A DNA stretch of 64,000 bases from an uncultured Anaerolineaceae bacterium (GTDB lineage Bacteria > Chloroflexota > Anaerolineae > JAAYZQ01), in assembly GCA_964593865.1 (NCBI GenBank), contig CAZQKE010000089.1:1358-65357 (forward strand). Reading direction: 5' to 3'. Under the pieces are notes generated by a model. That model saw only the letters and a program-made list of their open reading frames with translations. It searched no databases and had not been told where the DNA came from. Numbering within the stretch: the first letter of the stretch is position 1; every line of letters starts with the position of its first letter. Shown here piece by piece: positions 14,750-53,732 of this stretch. The position numbers and the translations under genes are program-made.

Positions 14750-14926
14750 GGTCGGTCAATGTTAGAGTTCGGGCCACAGGCCGTATTGCCCTTGCCCGAA
14801 ACCCAAAAGTGGATTTTGCATTTCCCCCTTGAATGAGGTATAATCGCTCCGGTTTGGCGGAACCCACCCTGGCCACAGAAGTTGTTTGCGGATGGCCCGG
14901 TACACCCCGACCGAGATAGGTGTGTG

Positions 14927-17782
14927 ATGCGAAAGGTTCGGTCTCATCCCTTCCTCTGGGCCGTGCTGAACCTGACCGGCTTGACGGCGGTCATCATCCT
15001 GCTGGCCTGGTTGTGGCGTAGACGGAAAACGGTCCGTCTCGCGCCGCCGCGCCGCGCCGTCCCCTCCGTCATCCCCACCGACATCCGGGGGTTGACCCAA
15101 TCCGAGGCAAAAGCCCGCCGCCAAGAGGGCCAGGATAACGCCATCTTTGCCACGCCGCCGCGCACCGTCCGCGACATCTGGCGCGAGAACCTCTATACCG
15201 TTTTCAATTTCAGTCTGGTGGGATTGGCCGTCGCCCAGTTGATTCTGGGCCAGCCCCTGGGCGCATTGGTCAGCTTGGGAACCATCTTTTTGAACATCGG
15301 CCTCAACATTGCCCAGGAGATGCTGGCCCGCCGTCGTCTGCGGGCCGTCGAGCAAGCCGGGCGGCCCCAGGCTACCGCCATTCGGGAAGGCCGCGTCCAC
15401 AGCATAGACCCTGCCGAGATCGTCGTCGGCGATGCGTTGGTCGTCGGCCCCGGCGACCAGGTGTTGGCCGACGGTGTGTTGATCGGCCGGGGCCGGATCG
15501 TGGTGGATGAGGCGATGTTGGGCCGGGGGCGGCGGGTTCCTAAAGGACCGGGCGATCCCCTCTACGCCGGTAGCATCTGCCTAGATGGGCGGGCCGTCTA
15601 CGAAGTGCAGCGGGTGGGTGATGAACGGCTCATTGCCATCCGGCTCAAAGAGGCCCCTGCCGCCCGCCCCGAATCGACCCCCCTGGAGCGGATCGTTGAG
15701 CGGGTTCTGTGGGTGTTGCTGGGCGTCGTCGCCCTACTGACCCTCCTGCTGCTGGGCGTCTACTTCCGGCTGGACCGGGCGTTGCAGGTGGATGTGGAAC
15801 CCTTTACCGATGCCGTTTCGGTCATTTTTAACATTGCCCCCAGCAGCCTTTATTTTATGATCGTGCTGACCTACGCGGCAGGTACGGCGGACCTGGCCCG
15901 CTTGGGTGCGCTGGTACACCGCGCCCGGTCCGTCGAATCGCTGGCCCAGGCGACGGTCGTTTGCTTTGCGCAGGCGGGGTTCCTCACCGGAACCCATGTT
16001 GAGATGCAGCCCATCGCTCCGCCGGAAGGCCACGAACCGGTGGCCGAATCGCGGCTGCGGCAGATCCTGGGCGATTTCGTGCGCAACACCTCCCTGGATA
16101 ACCTGGCGACGCGGGCCATGCTTTCGGTGTTTGAAGGGACGCCGCGCACGGTGCGGGAAGAAGCTCCCTTCCTCTCGGTCTACGGTTGGTGTGCCGTCGC
16201 CTTTGACGATGACGACCTGCAGGGCGTCTACATCTTGGGCGAGCGGGAAGCGTTGGCGCCATGCCTGCCCGCCGGAGGCGAAGCTCCACCGCCGGAGGGC
16301 GGGGCGGTGGAGGTGGGCCGTCAGGTGCTGGACAAGATCGCCTCCCCCCTGGGGCGTCTCTTCCGCCGCCCTGCGCCTCGGCCTGAAGGGACGCTCTCCC
16401 AAGAGCTGCGCCCCATCTCCCCTGCTGCAGGGCCGGGTGCCGCAACGCAGACGCCTGCTCTTTCGGAGGAGGAGCCACCCCGCAAAGGATTTTGGCGGCG
16501 ACTGGGCGGAGAGCGGGGGGCGGGCCTGCTGCGGAAGTTGGGCGGGCGGTTGGGCACGCTCCTGCGCCGGGGGGAAAAGCCGGATGGAGGAGCGGCCCCG
16601 GAGCGCGAGCCGTTGCAGGAAACCGTCTTGCTGTTCGCCTACACGCCGGAGCTCCGACCGCTCCACGGGGCCGACGGACGCCCCCGCCTGCCTGCTCCAT
16701 TGATCCCCCTGTGCGAACTCCATTACACCGAGCAGGTCCGTCCCGAAGCGGTCGAAGCGATCCGCACCTTCACCGAAAGCGGCATCGGCGTCAAAGCCTT
16801 TACCTACGACGATCCGGCGCAGACGACGGCGATCTTGCGCCGGGCGGGGCTGGAGGAGTCCCTCCTGCGGACCATCACCGGGCCGGAGCTGGAGGCCCTC
16901 GGTGAGGAAGAGCGGCAGCAGGCGGCGGAGGAGCACACCGTCTTTGGGCAGGTCACTCCCGAACAGGTGGGCGACCTGGTCCGCGATTTGCGCCGCCGGG
17001 GGGAATTGGTGGTCGTCGTCGGCGACCGGGTGAGCGATCTGCCTGCCATGCGCCGGGCCGATCTGGCCATCGCCCGCCAGAGCAGCAGCCAGGCCGCCCT
17101 CAGCGCGGCAGACATTGTGCTCCTGGGCGATTCGGCGGATGTGTTGCGGCGGGTGCTGGACAAGGGGCAACGCATCGGCCGCGGCCTGTTGGATGTGCTC
17201 AAACTGAACCTGACCCAGGTCTCCTATTTGGCGATCCTCATTCTGGCCCTTTATCTGCTTTCCGCCGGGTTCCCTTTCAGATCGGGGCAGGTGACGGTCA
17301 TCAACCTGGTTACCGTTGCTCTGCCGGCGGCCGGCTTTTCCCTGTGGGCCAGGGCGGGCGTCCTGCCCCGCAGGGGATTGGGCCGCATTCTGGCCCGCTT
17401 TGTGTTGCCCGCGGCCCTGACCCTGGGCACGGCAGCCGTCCTCACCTACCGCCATTTCTGGCTCCGAAGCGGGGAAATGGATTATGCCCGGCAGGCCATC
17501 ACCCACCTGTTGGTCCTGGCCGGGCTGGGGTTGGTGATGCTCATGTCCCCGCCCTTGCGGTTGGAGCGGGGGTTGCGGGTGCGCCTCGGCGATCCCCGTT
17601 TCACCGCCTTGGCCCTCTCCCTGCTGATCCTGTTCGTCGCCGCGACCGTCATCCCCCTGGCGCAAAAGTACCTGTTTATCGCCCCTTTGCACCGTCCGGC
17701 AGACTATACCCTGGTGGGGGCGGCAGCTCTGGCCTGCATTGCCGTCCTGCGCCTGGTTTGGACGGTGCTGCCGGTGGAATAG
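14927..17782 (+). CDS. P-type ATPase homolog with degenerate catalytic motifs (pseudo-ATPase) and a large low-complexity Pro/Gly/Arg-rich insertion
   Basis: Canonical P-type N-terminus (GLTQSEAKARRQEGQDN) and M1-M4 region. TGES is replaced by LGRGRR. DKTGTLT is replaced by FAQAGFLTGT, losing the phosphorylated Asp. GDGVND is replaced by GDRVSD. About 6 C-terminal TM helices. Upstream promoter TTGCAT-17-TATAAT at about 14813..14841. Confidence 0.7.
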   Translation: MRKVRSHPFLWAVLNLTGLTAVIILLAWLWRRRKTVRLAPPRRAVPSVIPTDIRGLTQSEAKARRQEGQDNAIFATPPRTVRDIWRENLYTVFNFSLVGLAVAQLILGQPLGALVSLGTIFLNIGLNIAQEMLARRRLRAVEQAGRPQATAIREGRVHSIDPAEIVVGDALVVGPGDQVLADGVLIGRGRIVVDEAMLGRGRRVPKGPGDPLYAGSICLDGRAVYEVQRVGDERLIAIRLKEAPAARPESTPLERIVERVLWVLLGVVALLTLLLLGVYFRLDRALQVDVEPFTDAVSVIFNIAPSSLYFMIVLTYAAGTADLARLGALVHRARSVESLAQATVVCFAQAGFLTGTHVEMQPIAPPEGHEPVAESRLRQILGDFVRNTSLDNLATRAMLSVFEGTPRTVREEAPFLSVYGWCAVAFDDDDLQGVYILGEREALAPCLPAGGEAPPPEGGAVEVGRQVLDKIASPLGRLFRRPAPRPEGTLSQELRPISPAAGPGAATQTPALSEEEPPRKGFWRRLGGERGAGLLRKLGGRLGTLLRRGEKPDGGAAPEREPLQETVLLFAYTPELRPLHGADGRPRLPAPLIPLCELHYTEQVRPEAVEAIRTFTESGIGVKAFTYDDPAQTTAILRRAGLEESLLRTITGPELEALGEEERQQAAEEHTVFGQVTPEQVGDLVRDLRRRGELVVVVGDRVSDLPAMRRADLAIARQSSSQAALSAADIVLLGDSADVLRRVLDKGQRIGRGLLDVLKLNLTQVSYLAILILALYLLSAGFPFRSGQVTVINLVTVALPAAGFSLWARAGVLPRRGLGRILARFVLPAALTLGTAAVLTYRHFWLRSGEMDYARQAITHLLVLAGLGLVMLMSPPLRLERGLRVRLGDPRFTALALSLLILFVAATVIPLAQKYLFIAPLHRPADYTLVGAAALACIAVLRLVWTVLPVE

Positions 17783-17791
17783 AGGTTGTTC

Positions 17792-18775
17792 ATGATGGAA
17801 GGAACCGTCGTCATCCGCAAGACGCCCTTTTTGTTTTTCAAACGCTTGATCCTGGTTGAATTCTTTTTCGCCCTTTTGCCGCTGGCACTCACCCTGCTTG
17901 CCGACCTGCGGGCCAGTTACGAAGCAACTCCCCTGGCGGCCAGTGTATCCTACCCTCTCCTGTTTGCCCTGGGAATTGCCACCCTGCAGGTGCTCATCCT
18001 CATCGTCGCTTTTGTGTTGTGGTATTTCCCCGTTTATGAAATAGACCGGGAGCGTGTTCTCTACCGTCGGGCCAATCTGTTTGAGGACCGGGTGCTGACC
18101 GCCACCCAGAGCATCACCGCCGTAGAACCACGGCAGAGCCGGTTAGGGCGGCGGTTGGGCTACGGCTCCCTCCTTATTTACAGCCGCGGGAACGACCGCC
18201 CGATCCACCTCCGCGACGTGCCCGATCCGGCCCGCCGCGCCGGGCAGATTTTGGCTCTGGTCGAGAAGCCACCCGCGCCTGACCGGGAACCCTCTTTGGC
18301 CGAGCTGCTTGCCCAGGGGGAAAATCAGCATGTGGAGTTCAAATCCAGCCTGCTGTGGGACTACCGTCGGCAAAAGGTGAACAAAGAGCTTTACGTCCCG
18401 GTGATGAAGAACATCGTCGCCTTCCTCAACACTACAGGGGGTACGCTGCTCATCGGTGTAGACGACGAAGGGCAGGTCCTGGGCTTGGAACCGGACTATC
18501 GCTCCATTCCCAAGCCCAATGCCGACGGTTTTGAGAATGTCTTCAACATGGCTTTCAACAAGATGATCGGCGTTGAATTCCGGCGGTTTGTAGACGTGCG
18601 CTTTGCCGAGATGGAGGGCAAGGAGGTCTGCATCGTTTCTGTGCGGCCTGCTTCCGAACCGGCGTTTTTGACCCACAAAGGGACGGAAACCTTTTACATC
18701 CGTGCCGGGAACGCAACCCAGCCCCTTTCGGTCAGCAAGGCGACCCACTATATCCGCGAGCATTTTGGGCAATGA
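17792..18775 (+). CDS. Membrane protein with N-terminal TM pair, YdbT-like bPH_2 domain, and C-terminal AlbA_2 (Schlafen-like putative nucleic-acid-binding) domain
   Basis: bPH_2: YEIDRERVLYRRANLFEDRVLTATQSITAVEP...LLIYSRG. AlbA_2: ENQHVEFKSSLL...IVAFLNTTGGTLLIGVDDEGQVLGLE...FYIRAGNATQPL. An AGAGG SD sits 6 nt before the ATG, 9 nt after the pseudo-ATPase stop. Confidence 0.7.
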   Translation: MMEGTVVIRKTPFLFFKRLILVEFFFALLPLALTLLADLRASYEATPLAASVSYPLLFALGIATLQVLILIVAFVLWYFPVYEIDRERVLYRRANLFEDRVLTATQSITAVEPRQSRLGRRLGYGSLLIYSRGNDRPIHLRDVPDPARRAGQILALVEKPPAPDREPSLAELLAQGENQHVEFKSSLLWDYRRQKVNKELYVPVMKNIVAFLNTTGGTLLIGVDDEGQVLGLEPDYRSIPKPNADGFENVFNMAFNKMIGVEFRRFVDVRFAEMEGKEVCIVSVRPASEPAFLTHKGTETFYIRAGNATQPLSVSKATHYIREHFGQ

Positions 18776-21583: not shown

Positions 21584-21740
21584 CGTAGAAAATAGCGGTT
21601 GAAACCGCCCCTGGCGGGTTGTTGGCCGACCGCCCGCCTGCGCGGGCGGAAGCGGGAGCGCCCGCGTAGGCAAACGCCCGGCCCCAGGCCCGAAAGGAGC
21701 GACTTGAGTCGCCACTTGGCGATGAGCCGGGGATCGGTCC
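21584..21740 (-). repeat. Copy A of a GC-rich hairpin-forming intergenic repeat family (longest copy; carries an internal ~50-nt insertion relative to copy B)
   Basis: Shares TAGAAAAT-GCGGTTGAAACCGC-GGCGG-GTTGGCCGACCGCCCG...ACTTGAGTCGCCAC with 25527..25640 in opposite orientation. The same frame translates to RSANNPPGAVSTAIFY in both copies. Confidence 0.6.
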
Positions 21741-25526: not shown

Positions 25527-25640
25527 TTGTGCGTGGCGACTCAAGTTGTCCCCCTTGGGCTTGCGGCCGACCGCCCACCTGCACGGGCGGTCGGCCAACG
25601 ATCCGCCGGGCGCGGTTTCAACCGCGATTTTCTACCAACC
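25527..25640 (+). repeat. Copy B of the hairpin-forming intergenic repeat family; fills the whole 124-nt spacer between two minus-strand genes
   Basis: Contains a perfect 12-bp stem ggccgaccgccc/gggcggtcggcc and a cgcgg-ttgaaa-ccgcg hairpin. Reverse complement of copy A. Confidence 0.6.
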
Positions 25641-26768: not shown

Positions 26769-27218
26769 ATGCGAGCCGTCATCCAACGGGTGCGTCGGGG
26801 GCGGGTTTCGGTGGAGGACAAGACCATCGGCGAGATCGGGCCGGGGTTGGTCATCTTGCTGGGGGTCGGTCGGGGCGACGGCGAAGCCCAGGCCGATAAG
26901 CTGGCGGCCAAGATCGCCCGTTTGCGCATCTTTGCCGATGCCCGGGGCAAGACCAACCTTTCGCTTCTGGATGTGGATGGGGAGGCGTTGGTCGTCTCCC
27001 AGTTCACCCTGTACGCCGATTGCCGCAAGGGGCGACGGCCCAGCTTCGTCCATGCCGCGCCGCCGGAGGTCGCCGCGCCGCTGGTGGACTATTTCGCCGA
27101 GCGGCTGCGCCGGGCCGGCGTCCGCCGGGTGGAGATGGGCGAGTTCGGGGCCATGATGTTGGTCGAGATAGAAAATGACGGGCCGTTCACCGTGATCTTG
27201 GATAGCGATGATCTCTAA
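26769..27218 (+). CDS. dtd: D-aminoacyl-tRNA deacylase
   Basis: MRAVIQRV...SQFTLYAD...GPF motif set of Dtd. 149 aa. Promoter TTGACT-17-TAGAAT about 60 nt upstream. Confidence 0.9.
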
Positions 27219-27376: not shown

Positions 27377-27452
27377 GCGAACATAACGGTTTGGGCAGAT
27401 CGGCCAGGTGTGGTAGAATAGTAGTGCAAGAAAGCGTAATCTTCGGAGTAGC

Positions 27453-27899
27453 ATGATGGGGCAATACCTGGACATTGATCCTTTGCAAGCAGAACAAATG
27501 GACGGCGGATTGCTGGGCTTGTTGCGCGAACCGGTGCCCGGACGGGGATGGGTGTCTGCCGGGCAATCCAAAATCTGGCGACCGCCTACCGATGTCTATG
27601 AAACCGATACTTATGTGATCGTCAAAGTCGAGATCGCCGGGATGAAAGAGAGCGACTTTTCCATCTCCCTGGATGCCAAAACGTTGGTCATCAGCGGCGT
27701 GCGCCACGATCCGGCGGACAAATTAGGCTATCAGCAAATGGAGATCATGTACGGTCACTTTGAGACCTACGTTCATTTGCCCCGTGCCATTGACCTAGAC
27801 GGGATCGAAGCAACCTACCAGAACGGCTTTCTTGACATCCGCCTGCCCAAAGTCCGACCACGCCAGATCCCCATCGTGAACGGAGACGAGACCGCGTGA
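27453..27899 (+). CDS. Hsp20/alpha-crystallin family small heat-shock protein
   Basis: ACD motifs: [32 protein letters not shown]. Confidence 0.9.
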
Positions 27900-27915: not shown

Positions 27916-30438
27916 ATGACAGAGCCACAAAACACCCAGAACACAGAACCGGATCAACAAGAAGAAGAAACCGCCATCCCTTCTGAGTTGGCCATCTTGC
28001 CTCTGCGGGGGGTAGTCGTCTACCCGTTGACCTTCCAGGCCCTCAACGTGGGCCAGCCCCGTTCCATCCAACTGGTGGATGAAGCCACCGTCAAAAAGCG
28101 GATGATCGGCCTGGTCACGATCCACAACGACGAAGTGGAGGAAGCCGGACCGGATGATGTGTACCGGGTCGGCGTGGCCGCCGCCATCCACCGCATGATC
28201 AAAGCTCCCGATGGAACCATCCGCCTGCTGGTCCAGGGCGTGGAACGCATCCAGATCGACGAATGGACCGCGACCGAGCCGTACCTGCGGGCACGGGTTC
28301 ACCCCATTCCCGACACGGTAGAGGAAGGGCTGGAGATAGAGGCGTTGATGCGCAACGCCACCGATCTGTTGCGCCGCATGGTCTCTTTGGTCTCCCAACT
28401 GCCCGATGAGCTACTCATGGCCGCCATCAACCTGGACGACCCTCGGCAGTTGGTCTATTTCATCGCCACCAATATCCGCATGGAGATCCCCGACGCCCAG
28501 GCCATCTTGGAAATCGACAGCGTCCGCGAAAAACTGCTCAAACTGACCACCATCCTCACCAAGGAGCTAGAAGTGCTGGAACTGGGCCGCAAGATCCAAA
28601 GCGAGGCCCAGGGCGAAATGGAGAGGATGCAGCGCGAATACTTCTTGCGCGAGCAGCTCAAGGCCATCAAAAAGGAACTGGGCGAAGAGGATGAACAGGC
28701 CCTGGAGGTCGAAGAATACCGCAAAAAGATCGCCGAAGCGGGGATGCCGGAGGAGGCAGAAAAGGAGGCCCTGCGCGAACTGAGCCGTATGGAAAAGATG
28801 CCGCCCCAGGCTGCCGAATACTCGGTCATCAAGACCTATTTGGACTGGCTGACCGAGATGCCCTGGCAGGTGACGACGGAGGACCAACTGGACGTGGCCC
28901 ACGCCCGCAAGGTCCTGGACGAGGACCACTATGACCTGGAGGACATCAAAGAGCGCATCCTGGAGTACCTGGCCGTGCGCAAACTCCGCCTGGAACGCCA
29001 AGCGGAGCGGGAGGAAGACGAGCCGACAGACCTGATCCGAGGCGAGCGGGAAGGTGTCATCCTTTGCTTCGTCGGGCCGCCGGGCACGGGCAAAACCAGC
29101 CTGGGCCGTTCCATCGCCCGCGCCCTGGGGCGCAAGTTTATGCGCATGAGCCTGGGCGGGATGCGCGACGAAGCCGAAATCCGAGGCCACCGGCGGACCT
29201 ACATCGGGGCCATGCCGGGCCGCATCATCCAGATCATCAAGCGGGTGGGGACCAAGAACCCGGTCATCATGCTCGACGAAATTGACAAAGTGGGCAGCGA
29301 CTGGCGGGGCGACCCTTCCTCCGCCTTGCTGGAGGTGTTGGACCCGGAACAGAACCGCGATTTCCGCGACCACTACCTAGATGTGCCCTTTGACCTCAGC
29401 CAGGTGATGTTCATCACCACGGCCAACATGTTGGGGGCCATCCCTCCCGCCCTGCGCGACCGGATGGAGGTCCTGGAGCTGGACGGCTATACCGAGGATG
29501 AAAAGGTCCACATCGCCAAAAAATACCTCATCCCGCGCCAGATCAGGGAAAACGCCCTGCGCCCGGAAGAGATCTCGTTCGACGACGAAGCCATCCGGGG
29601 CATCATCCGCGACTATACCCGCGAAGCCGGTGTCCGCAACCTGGAACGACAGATCGGCAAAATCTGCCGCAAGGTTGCCACCCGCGTCGCCGAAGCGGAA
29701 GAGGACATCTCGGTCCGCGTGACAAAGGAGGACCTGGTCGAGTTCCTGGGCCGCCCTCGCTTCTACTACGAAGTGGCCCAGCGGACCGAAATCCCCGGCG
29801 TCGCCACCGGCCTGGTGTGGACGCCTGCCGGTGGGGACATCACCTTCGTTGAGGCGACGCGGATGCCGGGCAACAAGCGGCTCATCCTGACCGGCAAACT
29901 GGGCGATGTGATGAAAGAGTCGGCTCAAGCCGCCGTCAGTTACGTCTACTCCAAAGCGGAGGAACTGGGCATTGACCCCGATCTCATCCGCAAGAGCGAC
30001 CTGCACATCCACGTTCCGGCGGGAGCCGTGCCCAAGGATGGGCCGTCGGCGGGCGTGACCATGGCCACCGCCCTCGTCTCCCTGCTGACCAATCGCAAAG
30101 TGCGGGCCGATGTCGCCATGACCGGCGAGATCACCCTGCGGGGCCAGGTGCTGCCGGTGGGCGGCATCAAACAGAAGGTCCTGGCCGCCGCCCGTGTAGG
30201 CATTGACACCGTGATCCTGCCCGCCCGCAACGAGCCAGACCTGGAAGACATCCCGGAAGAGGTGCGGGAAAAGATGACCTTCATCTTTGCCGACCGCGTG
30301 GACGAAGTCTTTGCCGCCGCCTTGCGCCCCCCGGAGCCGGAAGAGGAGCACGCACCCAAAGATTCGGAAAACATCGAAGCAGACAATGAGGAGCAAAAAT
30401 CCGGTGCAAACGGTTCGGAAGAAGATTCTGATCATTGA
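27916..30438 (+). CDS. lon: ATP-dependent protease La (Lon)
   Basis: Lon N-terminal domain. AAA Walker [10 protein letters not shown]. Catalytic Ser/Lys proteolytic domain (DGPSAG...K). Confidence 0.95.
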
Positions 30439-30775
30439 CGATGACCCTGCGGGCACACGGTTGCTTTCCGCCGTGTTGGAGATGGAGGGGTTTCAGCCCC
30501 TGATCCTGGAGAATTGGCGAGATCCCCTCAAGGAGGTAGCGCAATTACAACCGGACCTGGTGATCATGGACGTTTACCTGCGGACGACCACCGGGTTGCA
30601 CCTTCTCAGCCGCTTGCGGGAGCATCCCGACCCCCAAGTGGCCCGCATCCCGGTCCTGATGATGTCCGCCGAGAACCAGGCACACAAAAGCGCCCAGGCA
30701 GGAGCCAACGGGTTCCTGGAAAAACCGTTCCAGATTCAAGATCTCCTCGACGCCATCCGAAATGCCACGGCTTGA
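30386..30775 (+). CDS. Single-domain response regulator (CheY-like receiver); the start overlaps the lon 3' end
   Basis: [20 protein letters not shown], and a conserved Lys region. Start chosen at MRSKNP. The track ORF begins earlier at 30287. Confidence 0.7.
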
Positions 30776-30869
30776 ACACACCCCACGCAAGCCCCGTAGG
30801 CGTTCCTGCCGGGCGCGAGGCATCACCCGCTTTGCCGTAAACGAGATTTCAGAAAAGTGAGGAATTCAT

Positions 30870-32567
30870 GTGACAAAGAAGAAAAAAAAGAAGATGCAGT
30901 GGTACAAGATGGACCTGCATCTCCACACACCCGCTTCTGCCGATTGGCAAGAACCGGGGGTTGACTATTTGGACCTGCTCCACACAGCGGAGATGCGGGG
31001 GTTGGACATTATTGCCATCACCGACCACAACACCGTTGCCGGTTGCGCGGCATTGCAGGCGGACATTGAGAAACTTGATTTATTGGAACGATTGGGGAGA
31101 ATCCAGCCTGACGAACAGCGCAGATTGGACGAGTACCGGCGCATTGGGAACAAGATTTTGGTATTGCCGGGGTTTGAATTCACGGCCACATTGGGATTTC
31201 ATATTTTGGCCGTCTTCCCGCCCGAAACCTCGATCCGCCGATTGGAACATTTGCTGCTGGAGTTGAACGTACCGGCTTCCATGCTGGACGAAGGAGCGAC
31301 CGAAGTCGGGGCCACCGTTGATGTCCTGACCGCCTACCGCCTCATTGACGAAGCGGGGGGCCTGGTCATCGCCGCCCACGCCAACTCAAGCCACGGCGTG
31401 GCCTTACAGGGCCTCAACTTTGGCGGCCAGACGCGCATCGCCTACACCCAAGACCGTCACCTGCACGCCCTGGAAGTCACCGACCTGGAAAAGCGAGGCC
31501 GCCGGACGACCGCCTCCTTTTTCAGCGGGCGCAAACCGGAATACCCCCGGCGGATGCACTGCATCCAGGGATCCGACGCCCACCGCCGCAACCGCGATCC
31601 CGACGATCCCGGCCGTTTGGGGTGGGGCGACCGCGTGACCGAAATCCTGTTGCCGGAGCCGACCTTTGAGGCCATCAAGGCCGTCTTTTTGGGCGATGAC
31701 TTTTCCCGAACGCGGCCCTACCGCCCGGCCAAAGCCCCTTTTGACCACGTCCAAGCCGCCCGCGAAGAAGGCCCCAGCATCGTCCAAGCCTTCCACGAGA
31801 GCATGACCAAGCGCGGTGGGCGGCTCCATGCCATCCTGCGGGATGTGGTCGCCATGGCCAACACCAACGGCGGGACCATCTTTGTCGGCGTCAAGGCCGA
31901 TCCTAAGGCGATCCCGGCGGGCATCTCCGACCCGGAGGCGGCCGCCGCCACCCTCAAGGCCGAGATCCAACGCATGATCACCCCGCCCCTGGACGTAGAG
32001 ATCACAACGGTAGAAACCCATGGCCGTCCTGTGCTGCAGCTGAGCGTCCCCCTGGGCGAAGATGTACCCTACGCCCTGGACGGGACCAAAATCTACCTCC
32101 GCCAAGAGACCGAGACCCACCAGGCCATGCGCGACGAAATCGTCGCCCTGGTCCGCCGCGCCCTGCAGGGCAAAGAGCAGGATGCGGAAAAGGCCGAAGC
32201 AGAAGAGACGGCAGCCGGGGGCGTTGAACCACCGGGAACCGGCGTCCAAATCCTGGAAACCGTAGAGCGCAAGGGAACCCTTTACCACACCATGAAGAAC
32301 CTGCGCAACGGCAGCATCGTCCACAACGTGACCCGCTCCTCGGCCCGGAAGCTATGGCGATACGCCATCACCGAACATGAAAACAACCCGGTGCAGGAGG
32401 ACAAGGTCCGTTGGCAAGGCAACTTGGGGCTGTGGAAATCGTCGCGTCGGGCGGGAAAAGTGCGCTATGACCTGGTCCAGCGGATGCCCGACGGCCAGCT
32501 GCATGTCTACTATGGCGTCACGGAGGACGGCATAGACGGCCCCTGGCGCGTGTTTTTGGAAGAGTAA
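30870..32567 (+). CDS. PHP-domain (TrpH/YciV/RNase AM-like metal-dependent phosphoesterase) protein fused to an AlbA_2 (Schlafen-like) domain, with a poly-Lys N-terminus
   Basis: GTG start after a GTGAGG SD. N-terminus MTKKKKKKMQWYKMDLHLHTPAS...ITDHNT...PGFEF is a PHP fold. Middle region AILRDVVAMANTNGGTIFVGVKAD...YALDGTKIYLRQETETHQAM is AlbA_2. The C-terminal ~130 aa are unassigned. Confidence 0.7.
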   Translation: MTKKKKKKMQWYKMDLHLHTPASADWQEPGVDYLDLLHTAEMRGLDIIAITDHNTVAGCAALQADIEKLDLLERLGRIQPDEQRRLDEYRRIGNKILVLPGFEFTATLGFHILAVFPPETSIRRLEHLLLELNVPASMLDEGATEVGATVDVLTAYRLIDEAGGLVIAAHANSSHGVALQGLNFGGQTRIAYTQDRHLHALEVTDLEKRGRRTTASFFSGRKPEYPRRMHCIQGSDAHRRNRDPDDPGRLGWGDRVTEILLPEPTFEAIKAVFLGDDFSRTRPYRPAKAPFDHVQAAREEGPSIVQAFHESMTKRGGRLHAILRDVVAMANTNGGTIFVGVKADPKAIPAGISDPEAAAATLKAEIQRMITPPLDVEITTVETHGRPVLQLSVPLGEDVPYALDGTKIYLRQETETHQAMRDEIVALVRRALQGKEQDAEKAEAEETAAGGVEPPGTGVQILETVERKGTLYHTMKNLRNGSIVHNVTRSSARKLWRYAITEHENNPVQEDKVRWQGNLGLWKSSRRAGKVRYDLVQRMPDGQLHVYYGVTEDGIDGPWRVFLEE

Positions 32568-32834
32568 GGTCGGTCCAAGTTGCTCTTTTGGGGCTTGGCC
32601 GTCCGCAAGTGCGCCCGAATACACGAGTGGGCCGGGCACACTTGCGCGTTCGGCTCGATTCGCGGACGGCCCGCCCTGGCCGAGGGGATGGGCCGTCCCG
32701 CGGTACGTCGACGGGGATGAACCGCCGGTCGGTTCGTGCCGGGCTGCAATCCGGCATAAGGGCGCAATCTGTGACCGATTCCGGAGACCTGCGCCACGGT
32801 CCGGCGGGGGGGGTACCTGCAGAAGGGTTGTGCT

Positions 32835-34145
32835 ATGACAACGAAATCATCTACCGATCCTTATGAGCAATACATCCCGGAGCCGAAATCTATCGAGGAA
32901 ACGGGCCTGACCATGGGCTTTATCGCCGATCTGGTGCTCAAACTGGTCTACTACAAGAGCGAGATGAGCAGCATGGAGATCGCCGAGGAACTGGCCCTGC
33001 CCTACGTGGGCATCATGGAAAAGGTTCTGGACTTTCTCAAGAGAGAAGAATACATAGAGGTCTCCGGTTCCAAGGGGTTCGGGGAAAGGGGATACCAATG
33101 GGTTATCACCGGCAAGGGCAGCGACCGGGCGGTCAAGGCCCTGGATCGGGATATGTACATCGGCCCGGCCCCCGTCCCCCTGGAGGCGTATAACCAGATG
33201 GTCCGGCGGCAGACCATAGGCCGTTTACGCGTCGGCCCGGCGGAGGTTCGTCAGGCCCTTTCCCACCTGGTGTTGAGTGGGGAGTTGGTCAACCGGATCG
33301 GCCCTGCGGTCAACTCCGGGCACTCCCTCTTCCTGTACGGGCCGCCGGGCAACGGCAAGACGGTCATCGCCAAGGGCATTATCCGGATGCTCAAAGGACA
33401 CGTCTACATTCCCTACGCCGTGACGGTGGACGGTCAGATCATCCGCGTCTTTGATGAGATGAATCACAAGCGGATCAAAGGGCCGCCGGAGCGGGAACGG
33501 CAGGAGGGCAGCGGCTTGGGCGCCCGGCGGTTGGACCCCCGTTGGGTGCGGATTCGTCGCCCGGAGATCGTCGTCGGCGGTGAGCTGACCATGCATAACC
33601 TGGACCTGATCTACGATCCCATCTCCAAAACCTACGAAGCCCCCCTGCAGATGAAGGCCAACAACGGGCTGTTCGTCATTGACGACTTTGGCCGCCAGCC
33701 GATGCGTCCCCAGGACCTGCTCAACCGCTGGATCGTCCCTTTGGAAATGCATATTGACTTTCTGACCCTGCAGACGGGCAAAAAGATAGAGATCCCCTTT
33801 GACGAACTGATCGTCTTTTCTACCAACCTGGACCCCAAAGACCTGGTGGATGATGCCTTCCTGCGGCGCATTCGCCACAAACTGCTGATTGATTACCCCG
33901 ATGAAAAGATGTTCTACCAGATCATGCAACAAGAATGCGCCCGCCGGAACATGGACCTACCGCCGGAGGCGTTTGTCTACCTGATCCAAAAACATTACAT
34001 CGCCGCCGACCGGCCCTTGCGCTCCTGCCATCCCCGCGACCTGTTGGACCAGATTGAAGATATTGCCTCCTATCTGGGAATCAAACCGGTCCTTTCCAAG
34101 CAGCTCATTGATGCTGCTTGCGAGAGCTACTTTGCCGAGGTCTGA
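32835..34145 (+). CDS. AAA+ ATPase (classical clade with SRH) with an N-terminal winged-helix-like domain; family not recognised
   Basis: Walker A GPPGNGKT. Walker B LFVIDDFG. Sensor-1/SRH FSTNLDPKDLVDDAFLRRIRH. N-terminal ~110 aa look like a winged-helix domain. Confidence 0.7.
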   Translation: MTTKSSTDPYEQYIPEPKSIEETGLTMGFIADLVLKLVYYKSEMSSMEIAEELALPYVGIMEKVLDFLKREEYIEVSGSKGFGERGYQWVITGKGSDRAVKALDRDMYIGPAPVPLEAYNQMVRRQTIGRLRVGPAEVRQALSHLVLSGELVNRIGPAVNSGHSLFLYGPPGNGKTVIAKGIIRMLKGHVYIPYAVTVDGQIIRVFDEMNHKRIKGPPERERQEGSGLGARRLDPRWVRIRRPEIVVGGELTMHNLDLIYDPISKTYEAPLQMKANNGLFVIDDFGRQPMRPQDLLNRWIVPLEMHIDFLTLQTGKKIEIPFDELIVFSTNLDPKDLVDDAFLRRIRHKLLIDYPDEKMFYQIMQQECARRNMDLPPEAFVYLIQKHYIAADRPLRSCHPRDLLDQIEDIASYLGIKPVLSKQLIDAACESYFAEV

Positions 34146-34146
34146 G

Positions 34147-34665
34147 ATGGCGATCCGAGTCGGAATCTTGACCGTCAGCGACCGGGGCTACCGAGGCGAA
34201 TACCGCGATCTCAGCGGCCCCTTGATCCGCGAGATGGTGCAAGAGCGTTTGGGGGCCGCCGTCGAGCAGGAAACCATCGTGCCCGACGAGCGGGCGGTCA
34301 TCGCGGCCACCTTGCGCACCTGGGCCGATGCTGCGCACCTGGACCTGGTGCTCACCACGGGAGGGACGGGGTTCGCTCCCCGCGATGTGACGCCGGAGGC
34401 AACCCGCGATGTCATTGAGCGGGAAGCACCGGGCTTGGTCGAAGCGATGCGGGCTGCCGGCCTTGCGGTCACACCCTACGCCATGCTCTCGCGGGCCGTG
34501 GCCGGGATCAGAGGGCGGACCCTCATCGTGAACCTGCCCGGCAGCCCCAAAGCGGTGCGCGAAAACCTGGAGACGATCTTGCCTGCCTTGCCCCACGCCG
34601 TAGAGCTGCTACAGGGCCGCAAAGGGACAGACCGCCACCCGGACGAACGTTCCCGGTCGGCCTGA
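34147..34665 (+). CDS. mog: Molybdopterin adenylyltransferase / molybdenum cofactor biosynthesis protein (MogA/MoaB family)
   Basis: MAIRVGILTVSDRG..., GGTGFAPRD motif. Start trimmed to MAIRV, 2 nt after the upstream stop. Confidence 0.8.
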   Translation: MAIRVGILTVSDRGYRGEYRDLSGPLIREMVQERLGAAVEQETIVPDERAVIAATLRTWADAAHLDLVLTTGGTGFAPRDVTPEATRDVIEREAPGLVEAMRAAGLAVTPYAMLSRAVAGIRGRTLIVNLPGSPKAVRENLETILPALPHAVELLQGRKGTDRHPDERSRSA

Positions 34666-44866: not shown

Positions 44867-44951
44867 TGGTGGGCAGGGAAGGATTCGAACCTCCGAAGGC
44901 TGAGCCAGCGAATTTACAGTCCGCCCCCTTTGGCCACTTGGGTACCTGCCC
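44867..44951 (-). tRNA. tRNA-Tyr (anticodon GTA), class II with long variable arm, CCA encoded
   Basis: Hand-folded. Acceptor GGGCAGG/CCTGCCC. Anticodon loop cuGUAaa. T-arm GGTTCGAATCC. 3' ACCA. Confidence 0.8.
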
Positions 44952-47225: not shown

Positions 47226-47298
47226 GCCGCGGTAGCTCAGTTGGTAGAGCATTTGACTGAAAATCAAAGGGTCCCCAGTTCGAATCTGGGCTGCGGCA
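47226..47298 (+). tRNA. tRNA-Phe (anticodon GAA)
   Basis: GCCGCGGTAGCTCAGTTGGTAGAGC...cuGAAaa...GGTTCGAATC. Promoter TTGACA-17-TTAAAAT just upstream at about 47180..47215. Confidence 0.85.
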
Positions 47299-47311
47299 CT
47301 CAAATTCAAAA

Positions 47312-47382
47312 GTTTGTCTTTGCGGGCGTGGCTCAGCGGTAGAGCATCTCCTTGCCAAGGAGAGGGTCGTGGGTTCGAATCC
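47312..47382 (+). tRNA. tRNA-Gly (anticodon GCC)
   Basis: GCGGGCGTGGCTCAGCGGTAGAGC...uuGCCaa...GGTTCGAATCC. Confidence 0.85.
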
Positions 47383-47418
47383 CATCGCCCGCTCTCGGTT
47401 TATTTAGGCAGCGGATCG

Positions 47419-47489
47419 GGCGACGTAGCCAAGTGGCAAGGCAGCGGTCTGCAAAACCGCGATCACGGGTTCAAATCCCGTCGTCGCCT
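47419..47489 (+). tRNA. tRNA-Cys (anticodon GCA)
   Basis: GGCGACGTAGCCAAGTGG...cuGCAaa...GGTTCAAATCC. Confidence 0.85.
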
Positions 47490-47546
47490 CTGAGGGCAAA
47501 CGGGCTGGTAGTCTCGGTGGGGGCTATCAGCCGTTTGTGATTAGGC

Positions 47547-47630
47547 GGGGCGGTGGCGGAATGGCAGACGCTGCGGACTTAAAATCCGCTGGAGGAATAC
47601 TCCGTATGGGTTCGAATCCCATCCGCCCTA
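47547..47630 (+). tRNA. tRNA-Leu (anticodon TAA), class II with long variable arm
   Basis: ...GCGGAATGGCAGACGC...cuUAAaa...long variable arm...GGTTCGAATCC. Acceptor closes with a G1-U72 wobble. Confidence 0.75.
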
Positions 47631-52269: not shown

Positions 52270-52503
52270 GTGAGCGTAATTACCAAAGATATGCCCATCG
52301 GCGAAGTGGTGCAGACCTACCCCCAGACCATTGAGGTCTTTTTGCGGCATGGGTTGATGTGCTTTGGTTGCGCCATTGCCCGCTTTGAGAACGTGGAGCA
52401 AGGGGCTTTGGCCCACGGCATTGACGTTGAGGCGTTGATGCGGGATTTGAACGCAGCAGTGCCGGTGGACAATGAGCAATGGGCAATGACCAATGAGCAA
52501 TGA
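52270..52503 (+). CDS. DUF1858-type small redox protein (hybrid-cluster-protein-associated disulfide domain)
   Basis: Motif IGEVVQTYPQTIEVFLRHGLMCFGCA. 77 aa. Confidence 0.6.
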   Translation: MSVITKDMPIGEVVQTYPQTIEVFLRHGLMCFGCAIARFENVEQGALAHGIDVEALMRDLNAAVPVDNEQWAMTNEQ

Positions 52504-52556
52504 CCGATGGGCATTGCTCATTGCTCATTAGTCATTCGTCATTGATTGTCGGGAGG
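52488..52556. repeat. Tandem heptamer array (CAATGAG/CAATGGG/CAATGAC x5) directly followed by its reverse complement, giving a long imperfect palindrome. It overlaps the 3' end of the DUF1858 gene.
   Basis: Sequence caatgagcaatgggcaatgaccaatgagcaatgaccgatgggcattgctcattgctcattagtcattcgtcattg. Confidence 0.5.
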
Positions 52557-52562
52557 CAAACC

Positions 52563-53732
52563 ATGTGGTTCTTTCGCAGCCCGGAGATCGTCTTTGGGGC
52601 GGGGGCGTTGGACTACCTGACCGATCTGCCGGGGCATAAAGCGTTCATCGTCACCGACGAGAACATGGTCAAACTGGGGTTCGTCCGGCGGGTGCAGGAA
52701 GCTTTGGCTCAAGCAGGGATTGAAACGGAAGTTTTTGCCGAAGTGGAGCCGAATCCTTCGTTGCAGACCGTCAAGCGGGGGGCGGAGGCGGCCCGGGCTT
52801 ACGGGCCGGATTGGATCATCGGCCTGGGCGGAGGCTCGGCTATGGATGCGGCCAAGTCGGTGTTCGTGCAGTATGAGCGGCCTGACCTTCCCCCCGATGA
52901 CCTGGCCCCCATGGGGCACCTCGGCCTGCGTCAGAAGGCCAAACTGATGGCCATCCCCACCACCAGCGGCACGGGAGCCGAGGTCACCTGGCCCATCGTC
53001 CTCACCGATTTGGCCGAAGGGCGCAAGGTCACGGTGGGCCATGCCGAAAACATCCCCGATCTGGCCATTGTGGACCCGGTGTTCACGTTGCACCTCCCCC
53101 CTCAGATCACCGCCGATACGGGGATGGATGTGCTGACCCACGCCGTTGAGGGGTATACCGGTCAGTGGCGCAACGACTTTTCCGATGGCTTGTGCCTCAA
53201 GGCGGTCCAGATGGTGTTCACATATCTCCCCCGCGCTTACGAATCGGGCGCGGAGGATGAGGAAGCCCGTGAAAAGATGCACAACGCGGCGACCATCGCC
53301 GGGCTGGGGTTCGGCAACGCCCAGGCGGCTACGGCCCACGCGCTGGGGCATTCGCTGGGGGCGGTGTTTCACGTTCCCCACGGGCGGGCCGTGGGCCTTT
53401 TTTTGCCCTACACCATAGAGTTTGCCGTGCGGGGCTACCTGCCCACCCGTTACGCCGACCTGGCCCGCTTCCTGGGCTTGCCCGCGGAGGACGAAGCCCA
53501 GGGCGCGGCCGGCTTTGTCGCCGCCGTCCGCGACCTGGCCCGGCGCATCGGGCAGCCGACCTCGCTGCAGGAAGCAGGTATCTCCCCGGAAGAGTTTGAA
53601 GCCAAATTGCCCAAACTGGTGGATAACGCCCTCAATGACAGTGCCATGCTCATCGGCTCCCGCTTCCCGGAAGAGGAAGAGGTTGAAAAGATATTTCGCT
53701 ATGCCTATGAGGGCAAGCCGATAGATTTCTGA
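52563..53732 (+). CDS. Iron-containing (group III) alcohol dehydrogenase
   Basis: GGGSAMDAAK, the His-rich metal site (HAVEGY, HALGH...HG), and NAD-binding TSGTGAEVT. Start re-picked at MWFFRS with a GGAGG SD. Confidence 0.85.
   Translation: MWFFRSPEIVFGAGALDYLTDLPGHKAFIVTDENMVKLGFVRRVQEALAQAGIETEVFAEVEPNPSLQTVKRGAEAARAYGPDWIIGLGGGSAMDAAKSVFVQYERPDLPPDDLAPMGHLGLRQKAKLMAIPTTSGTGAEVTWPIVLTDLAEGRKVTVGHAENIPDLAIVDPVFTLHLPPQITADTGMDVLTHAVEGYTGQWRNDFSDGLCLKAVQMVFTYLPRAYESGAEDEEAREKMHNAATIAGLGFGNAQAATAHALGHSLGAVFHVPHGRAVGLFLPYTIEFAVRGYLPTRYADLARFLGLPAEDEAQGAAGFVAAVRDLARRIGQPTSLQEAGISPEEFEAKLPKLVDNALNDSAMLIGSRFPEEEEVEKIFRYAYEGKPIDF

Follow-up and report, generated by a model that had tools for sequence, protein, structure and literature searches.

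Whether three neighbouring genes of an uncultured Anaerolineaceae bacterium, encoding a receiver, a PHP phosphoesterase fused to a Schlafen-like AlbA_2 domain and an AAA ATPase, form a single nucleic-acid-targeting module is the question raised by positions 30386-34145 of a 64,000-nucleotide (nt) stretch of contig CAZQKE010000089.1 (the window). The first-pass annotation, made from the sequence alone, had proposed that these genes combine a nuclease, a sensor and a motor in the manner of an anti-phage system. The three open reading frames (ORFs) are present where that annotation had placed them, but comparison with related genomes points to a different organization. The reading that we favour, and that we hold to be somewhat better than an even bet, is that the genes belong to a conserved Anaerolineae block with the order hsp20 - lon - receiver - PHP/AlbA_2 - (AAA) - mogA, that its PHP-AlbA_2 product would be a nucleic-acid phosphoesterase, and that the AAA gene and the spacer in front of it would be later insertions.

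The gene order was compared by tblastn across 88 related loci (labelled L001 onwards), for each of which ~15 kb was fetched. An AAA gene lies directly 3' of the PHP gene in all nine loci where the PHP protein is at least 75% identical to that of the window, and in none of the 70 loci where this identity is at most 66%; at the latter, no AAA homologue was found anywhere in the ~15 kb fetched. The two genes thus do occur together in other genomes, yet only within this one narrow clade, and the proposed three-gene module of nuclease, sensor and AAA protein did not survive the comparison. A mogA gene is found 3' of the PHP gene in 38 of 79 loci, and at many loci lacking the AAA gene it starts 6-100 nt past the PHP gene. 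Because the AAA gene is absent from the distant loci and mogA directly follows the PHP gene in many of them, the alignments indicate that mogA is the ancestral downstream neighbour and that the AAA gene was inserted between the two in one sub-lineage.

The PHP-AlbA_2 gene itself is far more widespread. It was detected in at least 494 species-representative genomes, nearly all of them titled Anaerolineae or Chloroflexota, and the family comprises 202 clusters at 50% identity (E<1e-30). Its mean identity in 52 genomes was 62%, compared to 67% for Lon in the same genomes. A receiver gene lies directly 5' of it in 60 of 84 loci and lon lies 5' of it in 48 of the 72 loci with enough flank, with hsp20 upstream of lon in most. 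The flanking genes dtd, hsp20, lon, mogA and hutI are housekeeping genes, no integrase or mobile genes were found in the context, and the GC content of the region (0.59-0.63) is the same as that of the remaining window. The best-supported interpretation of this distribution is that PHP-AlbA_2 is encoded by a vertically inherited backbone gene that is restricted to Chloroflexota, and mostly to Anaerolineae, rather than by a patchy defence gene. The features of the locus, all on the plus strand, are as follows.

26769-27218, plus strand: dtd (ORF list).
27392-27419, plus strand: promoter-like site 5' of hsp20 (TGGGCA-16-TG-TAGAAT, extended -10; consensus scan).
27453-27899, plus strand: hsp20, encoding a small heat-shock protein and opening the conserved block (ORF; PF00011 in the orthologues at L001, L002 and L084).
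27916-30438, plus strand: lon, ATP-dependent protease La (ORF; orthologues with LON_substr_bdg, AAA and Lon_C domains).
30386-30775, plus strand: stand-alone CheY-like receiver of 129 residues, its start overlapping the end of lon (PF00072, 2.6e-23).
30870-32567, plus strand: PHP-AlbA_2 gene, GTG start at 30870, 565 residues (ORF).
30873-30893, plus strand: basic N-terminal tail TKKKKKK, partly encoded by a run of eight A (sequence).
30897-31769, plus strand: PHP metal-dependent phosphoesterase domain, residues ~10-300 (domain searches and alignment).
31785-32159, plus strand: AlbA_2 (Schlafen-like) domain, residues ~306-430, probably non-catalytic (PF04326).
32160-32225, plus strand: short acidic linker (family alignment).
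32226-32567, plus strand: family-specific C-terminal domain, residues 453-565, predicted beta3-alpha-beta4-alpha (alignment and model).
32568-32834, plus strand: GC-rich intergenic insertion of 267 nt, seen in this genome only (comparison with relatives).
32835-34145, plus strand: winged helix-turn-helix (wHTH) and AAA ATPase gene, 436 residues, N-domain at residues ~10-125 (motifs, profile matches and model).
33339-33362, 33669-33686 and 33819-33875, plus strand: Walker A, Walker B (IDD), and sensor-1 with a segment resembling the second region of homology (SRH) of the AAA gene.
34147-34665, plus strand: mogA-like (MoCF_biosynth) gene, 1 nt past the AAA stop codon (PF00994 in orthologues).

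The next gene on the plus strand after mogA, by ORF order in the window, is hutI. The wider window has the content of an ordinary chromosome, with genes for MutS2, transaldolase, a P-type ATPase, GlmS, MetRS, a MiaB-like enzyme and tRNAs.

If the AAA gene is a late arrival, it should be possible to recognize where its family belongs. The AAA protein carries a Walker A motif (GPPGNGKT), a sensor-1 Asn (N331) and an SRH-like FLRRIRH segment. Its Walker A and SRH-like segments align to those of NSF, Cdc48 and VAT, and profile matches to PDB entries, spastin included, ranged from 1e-7 to 5e-8. It differs from these more distant members of the classical AAA clade in its Walker B motif, which reads IDD (Asp-Asp, not Asp-Glu), and in ~90 extra residues between Walker A and Walker B; the Pfam AAA score was 21.0 bits against a cut-off of 21.2. 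The first-pass annotation had called this protein a classical AAA ATPase with a full SRH and arginine-finger region. The AAA core was poorly modelled, whereas the N-domain (residues 10-125) was confidently modelled as a winged helix and matched MarR-like winged-helix proteins, which bears out the winged helix that had been predicted for it. A classical-clade-like AAA protein with a wHTH domain is a fair description.

Full-length homologues of this protein, with 33-40% identity, were found by tblastn on 76 proteobacterial replicons, including those of Rhizobium, Sinorhizobium, Burkholderia, Paraburkholderia and Salipiger. In all five loci inspected (L087, L088, L091, L092 and L093, on Rhizobium, Paraburkholderia, Salipiger and Burkholderia replicons), the homologue lies in or beside a Tad/Flp pilus cluster, either following tadC or flanked by the prepilin peptidase gene and cpaB. 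The homologue on Rhizobium etli p42e (WP_011428170.1) shares 39% identity with the window protein, collinear over 421 residues (E 5e-103). This wHTH-AAA protein of Tad/Flp loci carries no name beyond 'ATP-binding protein', and our literature search returned no description of a wHTH-AAA protein as a Tad pilus component. The window itself differs from these loci in that it contains no tad genes. Since the homologues lie in Tad/Flp loci, the AAA family has a history of its own, unrelated to PHP-AlbA_2, and the role of motor in a nuclease module that had been assigned to it is not what the homologue search suggests.

An inserted gene may nevertheless acquire a function with its new neighbour. According to such a co-option scenario, the wHTH-AAA protein is now a partner of PHP-AlbA_2 in the close clade, for instance as a remodeller or a DNA-targeting subunit, while the wider family works without it. 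The genes are adjacent in all nine clade loci, their stop and start codons overlap as ATGA in L089 and L090, the gaps are short (37-93 nt) in L001, L002, L084 and L086, and AAA identity (72-80%) tracks PHP identity (81-83%) in L001-L004. However, AAA and mogA are just as tightly spaced (1 nt), so that the arrangement may reflect no more than a compact operon; moreover, this genome tolerates 267 nt between the PHP and AAA genes, no clade-specific change in the domains of the PHP protein coincides with the gain of AAA, and AAA homologues elsewhere have unrelated neighbours. We consider co-option a minority possibility that deserves to be kept in mind.

The spacer between the two genes had been described as a 266-nt GC-rich structured element. 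A GC-rich gap is indeed present, of 267 nt, but its predicted fold is just modestly more stable than those of shuffled versions (z = -2.06), and it is missing in the nearest relatives. In the nearest relatives, L089 and L090, whose PHP proteins are 93-94% identical to that of the window, the PHP stop and AAA start overlap by 4 nt, and in other clade members the gap measures 37-200 nt. Because the nearest relatives have overlapping genes and lack the spacer, it is read as a later insertion private to this genome. Two identities for it were considered and rejected. It is not a known RNA, as Rfam gave no match in the whole window at the gathering threshold or in 30700-32900 at E<=1. Nor is it a repeat element: no further copy occurs in the window, and the motifs GCGGACGGCC and GGCCGTCCGCAA are slightly enriched but define no family. 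An exact 30-mer taken from it had no match in metagenome contigs.

What, then, might the conserved gene encode? Pfam PHP scored below its cut-off on the 565-residue protein (20.6 bits against 26.4), but the fold and the metal-ligand pattern of the PHP superfamily are both present. In an alignment of 16 members (35-100% identity), the ligands D15, H17, H19, D25, D52-H53, E103, H111, H170, S235 and H238 are invariant, and 14 of these members retain the complete GSDAH motif. The AlphaFold model of PHP-AlbA_2 was confident over residues 10-170 as well as in AlbA_2 and the C-terminal domain, with a predicted local distance difference test (pLDDT) score below 50 for residues 171-305. A further profile search for homologues to be used in modelling gave only the same close clade, and as a consequence of this narrow set both AlphaFold models, of PHP-AlbA_2 and of the AAA protein, are only partly confident.

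The first-pass annotation had assigned the domain to the TrpH/RNase AM type. The PHP fold and ligands were confirmed, but the 'TrpH-like' label proved too specific, because the RNase RNM profile (NF047791; 22.3 bits against a cut-off of 375), which stands for RNase AM/TrpH (YciV, PDB 9etk), aligns to residues 14-69 only. The best sequence matches of the PHP domain are instead TrlF, from the Photorhabdus TRL operon and composed of PHP and an AAA-like ATPase, and Ppl, a single-gene anti-phage protein composed of PHP and an ATPase. NCBIfam TrlF (NF045780) aligns to residues 9-278 (8e-30; profile positions 3-268 of 944; 104.3 bits against a cut-off of 350), and NCBIfam Ppl (NF042955) to residues 10-295 (4e-23; profile positions 3-254 of 882; 81.3 bits against a cut-off of 1000). 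The Ppl profile of PADLOC matched likewise (1.8e-18, positions 6-217 of 894). Phosphodiester hydrolysis is the presumed activity of the PHP domain in Ppl (PMC11482910). In comparison to both proteins, the match is confined to the N-terminal ~270 of 880-944 profile positions with scores far under the family cut-offs, the window protein has AlbA_2 and a new C-terminal domain in place of the ATPase, and its gene is a conserved backbone gene instead of a sporadic defence gene. Identity to EndoQ (PDB 5zb8, 7k30) and to TM0559 (2anu), of the CehA/McbA-type PHP branch, was 17-25%. EndoQ aligns to the PHP domain and to no other part of the window protein, and its lesion specificity is not inferable from this similarity.

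Downstream of the PHP domain, the predicted AlbA_2 domain was borne out by a PF04326 match of 6.5e-18, above the gathering score. In all family members tested this match begins at position 19-24 of the hidden Markov model (HMM). The catalytic acidic residues of the Schlafen-type endoribonuclease CbCash are E17 and D22 (PMC13462974). Profile alignments to CbCash and SLFN14 start past the strand that bears these two residues, and the column beneath the GV(H/D)D motif of SLFN5 and SLFN14 is variable among PHP-AlbA_2 members. As judged from sequence alignment, the PHP-fused AlbA_2 thus lacks the catalytic acidic residues of a Schlafen-type endoribonuclease. Because these residues lie outside the match or are not conserved, the domain is probably non-catalytic and would bind rather than cut. 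Its match to the AlbA_2 fold and sequence, known from Schlafen nucleases (SLFN11/13/14, CbCash) and from the N-domains of RecG-related putative regulators (2kyy, DIP2311), is clear, while it resembles the non-catalytic, binding-type members; 2kyy and 3lmm were among the top fold matches of PHP-AlbA_2. A second AlbA_2 protein is encoded in the window at 17786-18775 (plus strand, 329 residues), directly 3' of a P-type ATPase gene (14882-17782). It combines a bacterial PH domain (bPH_2) with a full-length SLFN_AlbA_2 match (HMM 1-117), so that its AlbA_2 domain, unlike the PHP-fused copy, has retained the N-terminal portion.

Family members range from 574 to 1358 residues and match in two stretches, which are separated by a linker that is short and acidic here and that spans hundreds of low-complexity residues in other members, many of which also have K/R-rich tails. 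The distant members P0349, P0364, P0371 and P0382 have very long Pro/Ala/Glu-rich linkers and histone-H1-like K/R/A-rich C-terminal tails. The C-terminus that had been left unassigned turned out to be a real conserved domain at residues ~453-565 that lacks a Pfam family, a sub-threshold DUF4757 match aside. Its pLDDT was 73-90 per 10-residue block (residues 451-565); in the 16-member alignment P455, G458, L478, R479, V487, A499 and I500 are invariant, and W496, W515 and W559 nearly so. A structure search with the model gave no PDB fold match that could be assigned to this domain, which has been duplicated in the distant members P0285, P0290 and P0314. Proteins consisting of this domain only were looked for as well, but the apparent cases were N-truncated metagenomic fragments with the same architecture.

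The N-terminus reads MTKKKKKKM and, as the first-pass annotation had noted, includes an A-rich tract, with a run of eight A. The accompanying idea that this tract is prone to slippage was rejected, and phase variation likewise: eight close relatives share the GTG start and a GAGGAG Shine-Dalgarno sequence, and in them the tail is always eight codons long (TKKKKKKM, TRKKKSKM, TTKKREKM, TRKRKQKM, AKKRKKSM, AKKRKRNM, TKKKSDKM) and varies by K/R substitution, not by length. Family-wide (~85 loci), a K/R-rich segment precedes a conserved QW(Y/R) motif and is encoded by Lys or Arg codons alike. Since the basic tail is thus present throughout the family with either codon type, the run of eight A is just one encoding of a tail that is itself under selection.

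With these domain assignments, the anti-phage interpretation can be weighed. It would have AlbA_2 sense foreign nucleic acid, the AAA protein remodel or activate, and PHP degrade, with the receiver as part of the module. Its attractions are that the PHP domain is closest in sequence to the PHP modules of Ppl and TrlF, that Schlafen domains act in prokaryotic defence (PMC13462974), that the AAA protein has weak matches to IetA, and that within the close clade the AAA gene either adjoins the PHP gene or overlaps it by 4 nt. These matches, however, are confined to the PHP domain or the P-loop (81 against 1000, 104 against 350 and 33 against 510 bits), and the Schlafen catalytic residues are not conserved. 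The IetA/IteA matches cover 29-53 residues about the P-loop (32.8 bits against a cut-off of 510), and an IetAS system was rejected as IetA is not matched over its full length and the neighbours are the PHP gene and mogA, with no IetS-like protease partner. Searches with PADLOC-DB 2.0 gave partial-domain matches only (the Ppl PHP module and the IetA P-loop) and no catalogued anti-phage system, in agreement with the earlier statement that the locus matches no named system. Relatives of the AAA protein were not found in phage records, relatives of neither the PHP nor the AAA protein were found in IMG/VR viral contigs, and PHROGs returned generic AlbA_2 and P-loop matches only. The absence of the AAA gene from all 70 more distant loci, the Tad linkage of its family elsewhere, and a class-wide PHP gene that is conserved about as well as Lon in a housekeeping context of unchanged GC content and free of mobile genes all speak against defence. 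The resemblance to anti-phage systems accordingly appears superficial, and we regard a defence module as very improbable; an activity directed at nucleic acids remains plausible for the uncharacterised PHP-AlbA_2 protein. A literature search retrieved no paper that joins a PHP domain with Schlafen or AlbA_2, and none relevant on the gene block in Anaerolineae.

The same domains could also belong to a regulator, in which PHP-AlbA_2 mainly binds DNA to control transcription of the hsp20-lon block or of other genes and the PHP domain serves as a metal or ligand sensor. Relatives are named 'transcriptional regulator' or 'putative DNA binding domain-containing protein' at NCBI, although these names are automatic annotations derived from the AlbA_2 match. 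AlbA_2 is the N-terminal domain of the RecG-related putative regulators mentioned above, and the protein has basic tails. On the other hand, Pfam searches detected no helix-turn-helix domain in PHP-AlbA_2, and the invariance of the complete metal-ligand set across the family argues for catalysis. We therefore judge a primarily regulatory role to be improbable.

The stand-alone receiver directly 5' of the PHP gene was recovered as had been described (PF00072, 2.6e-23), its 5' end overlapping the lon stop codon. Its mean identity is 37% (62 genomes), and D19, D20, D62, S94 and K113 are invariant in 63 of 63 PHP-adjacent receivers, so that the DD pocket, the phospho-acceptor Asp, the Ser and the Lys of response-regulator receivers are all present. 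The PHP family includes CpsB-type tyrosine phosphatases. PHP might by analogy act on a phospho-protein, for example by dephosphorylating the adjacent receiver, and the two would then form a signalling pair. The position of the receiver in 60 of 84 loci with its invariant phospho-acceptor set would agree with this, as would a conserved block without a histidine kinase or a known receiver phosphatase. Yet the PHP domain shares its polypeptide with basic tails and with AlbA_2, a domain that binds nucleic acids, it is most closely related to the PHP modules of ATPase-nuclease-type proteins, EndoQ, TM0559 and RNase AM, no CpsB-type family matched in Pfam or NCBIfam, and ~29% of the loci have no receiver. 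We consider such a signalling pair quite improbable.

Expression of the block was approached through its promoter and gene junctions. A TGTGGTA(G/A)AAT motif is present 5' of hsp20 in 31 of 48 related Anaerolineae loci, where a conserved extended -10 promoter (TTGAGy-17-TGTGGTAGAAT) precedes this gene. The junctions are tight, with lon and the receiver gene overlapping and 1 nt between the AAA stop and the mogA start, and a scan of the window locus revealed no plus-strand terminator between genes of the block. Co-expression of PHP-AlbA_2 with the proteostasis genes is probable.

Taken together, the favoured reading of a conserved block with a nucleic-acid phosphoesterase would work as follows. 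The enzyme would consist of a short K/R tail, a PHP domain whose trinuclear metal site is intact, an AlbA_2 domain without the Schlafen nuclease residues, a variable linker and the C-terminal domain, and PHP-AlbA_2 is probably a metal-dependent nucleic-acid phosphoesterase guided by its non-catalytic AlbA_2 domain. AlbA_2 and the basic tail, possibly with the C-terminal domain, would hold DNA or structured RNA while the PHP site cuts or trims it, in a housekeeping or stress-associated role as either a nuclease or an end-processing phosphatase. The PHP gene would probably be transcribed with hsp20 and lon from the conserved promoter, and the phosphorylatable receiver encoded just upstream may modulate the enzyme. 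The wHTH-AAA gene, from an independent Tad-linked family, would have been inserted in one sub-lineage, where it separates the PHP gene from mogA, and the spacer would have followed later. In this scheme the architecture, active-site conservation, taxonomic range, synteny and lack of defence or mobile hallmarks were observed directly, whereas we infer the substrate, the co-transcription, the control by the receiver and the link to heat stress.

Several observations weigh against this interpretation. The nearest named sequence relatives of the PHP domain are Ppl, an anti-phage protein, and TrlF. The second half of the PHP domain has a low-confidence model, and because residues 171-305 are poorly modelled the similarity to EndoQ derives mainly from the first half. 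Receivers are missing from ~29% of the loci and lon is not upstream in ~33%, so these links are frequent but not obligatory, and the linkage to the receiver and lon genes could be mere inherited gene order. Heat-shock regulation is assumed from the neighbouring genes alone, since no CIRCE or HAIR operator was found 5' of hsp20 in any of the 48 loci. Finally, a secondary coupling of PHP and AAA within the close clade, where the genes are always adjacent and sometimes overlap, is possible.

A more ambitious version of the favoured reading would make PHP-AlbA_2 a class-wide nucleic-acid quality-control enzyme. A receiver-linked PHP nuclease or end-phosphatase would act with Lon and Hsp20 in stress, its dead Schlafen-like domain and new C-terminal fold would select damaged DNA or structured RNA (tRNA or rRNA), and one sub-lineage would have recruited a Tad-derived wHTH-AAA protein. 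We offer this version tentatively and think it unlikely as a whole. TrlF comes from a Photorhabdus operon that is induced by a temperature up-shift (bioRxiv 10.1101/2020.06.02.129163), and the parallel with the hsp20-lon setting may be a coincidence.

The block can evidently be rearranged even between near-identical PHP genes, because the closest relative, L089 (a hydrothermal-vent metagenome contig; PHP 94% identical), differs upstream: it has no lon or receiver there, and the PHP gene is preceded by a 475-residue unannotated ORF and a GT4 glycosyltransferase gene.

Elsewhere in the window, two inverted-repeat pairs at 21585-21715 / 25533-25635 (65 nt with 83% and 60 nt with 72% complementarity) bracket a ~3.9-kb cassette that could be mobile or regulated. 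Its genes encode Usp, a CitMHS-type transporter, Usp and a DUF4405 protein. At 52470-52544, a near-palindromic run of CAATGAG/CAATGGG/CAATGAC heptamers, with 36-nt arms that are 81% complementary and 3 nt apart, is situated at the 5' end of an Fe-dependent alcohol dehydrogenase ORF (52500-53732). One tRNA gene lies at 44870-44951 on the minus strand, and four are clustered at 47226-47630 on the plus strand, 3' of metG.

The comparison removes a false lead, in that a neighbourhood resembling a defence locus, with its nuclease, Schlafen-like and AAA proteins, resolves into a backbone locus with a lineage-specific insertion. What is new here is the way in which known domains are combined with one that is unassigned, in a class that has been little studied; it does not amount to a new kind of system. 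What remains is an uncharacterised, strongly conserved family of Chloroflexota, mostly Anaerolineae, in which an active-looking PHP site is joined to a non-catalytic Schlafen-like domain and to a C-terminal domain that is unassigned. The unnamed wHTH-AAA family that is embedded in proteobacterial Tad/Flp loci may be of interest to pilus researchers. Anaerolineae are abundant in wastewater, sediments and the subsurface and are genetically poorly studied, and a class-wide enzyme of unknown function is therefore a reasonable biochemical target.

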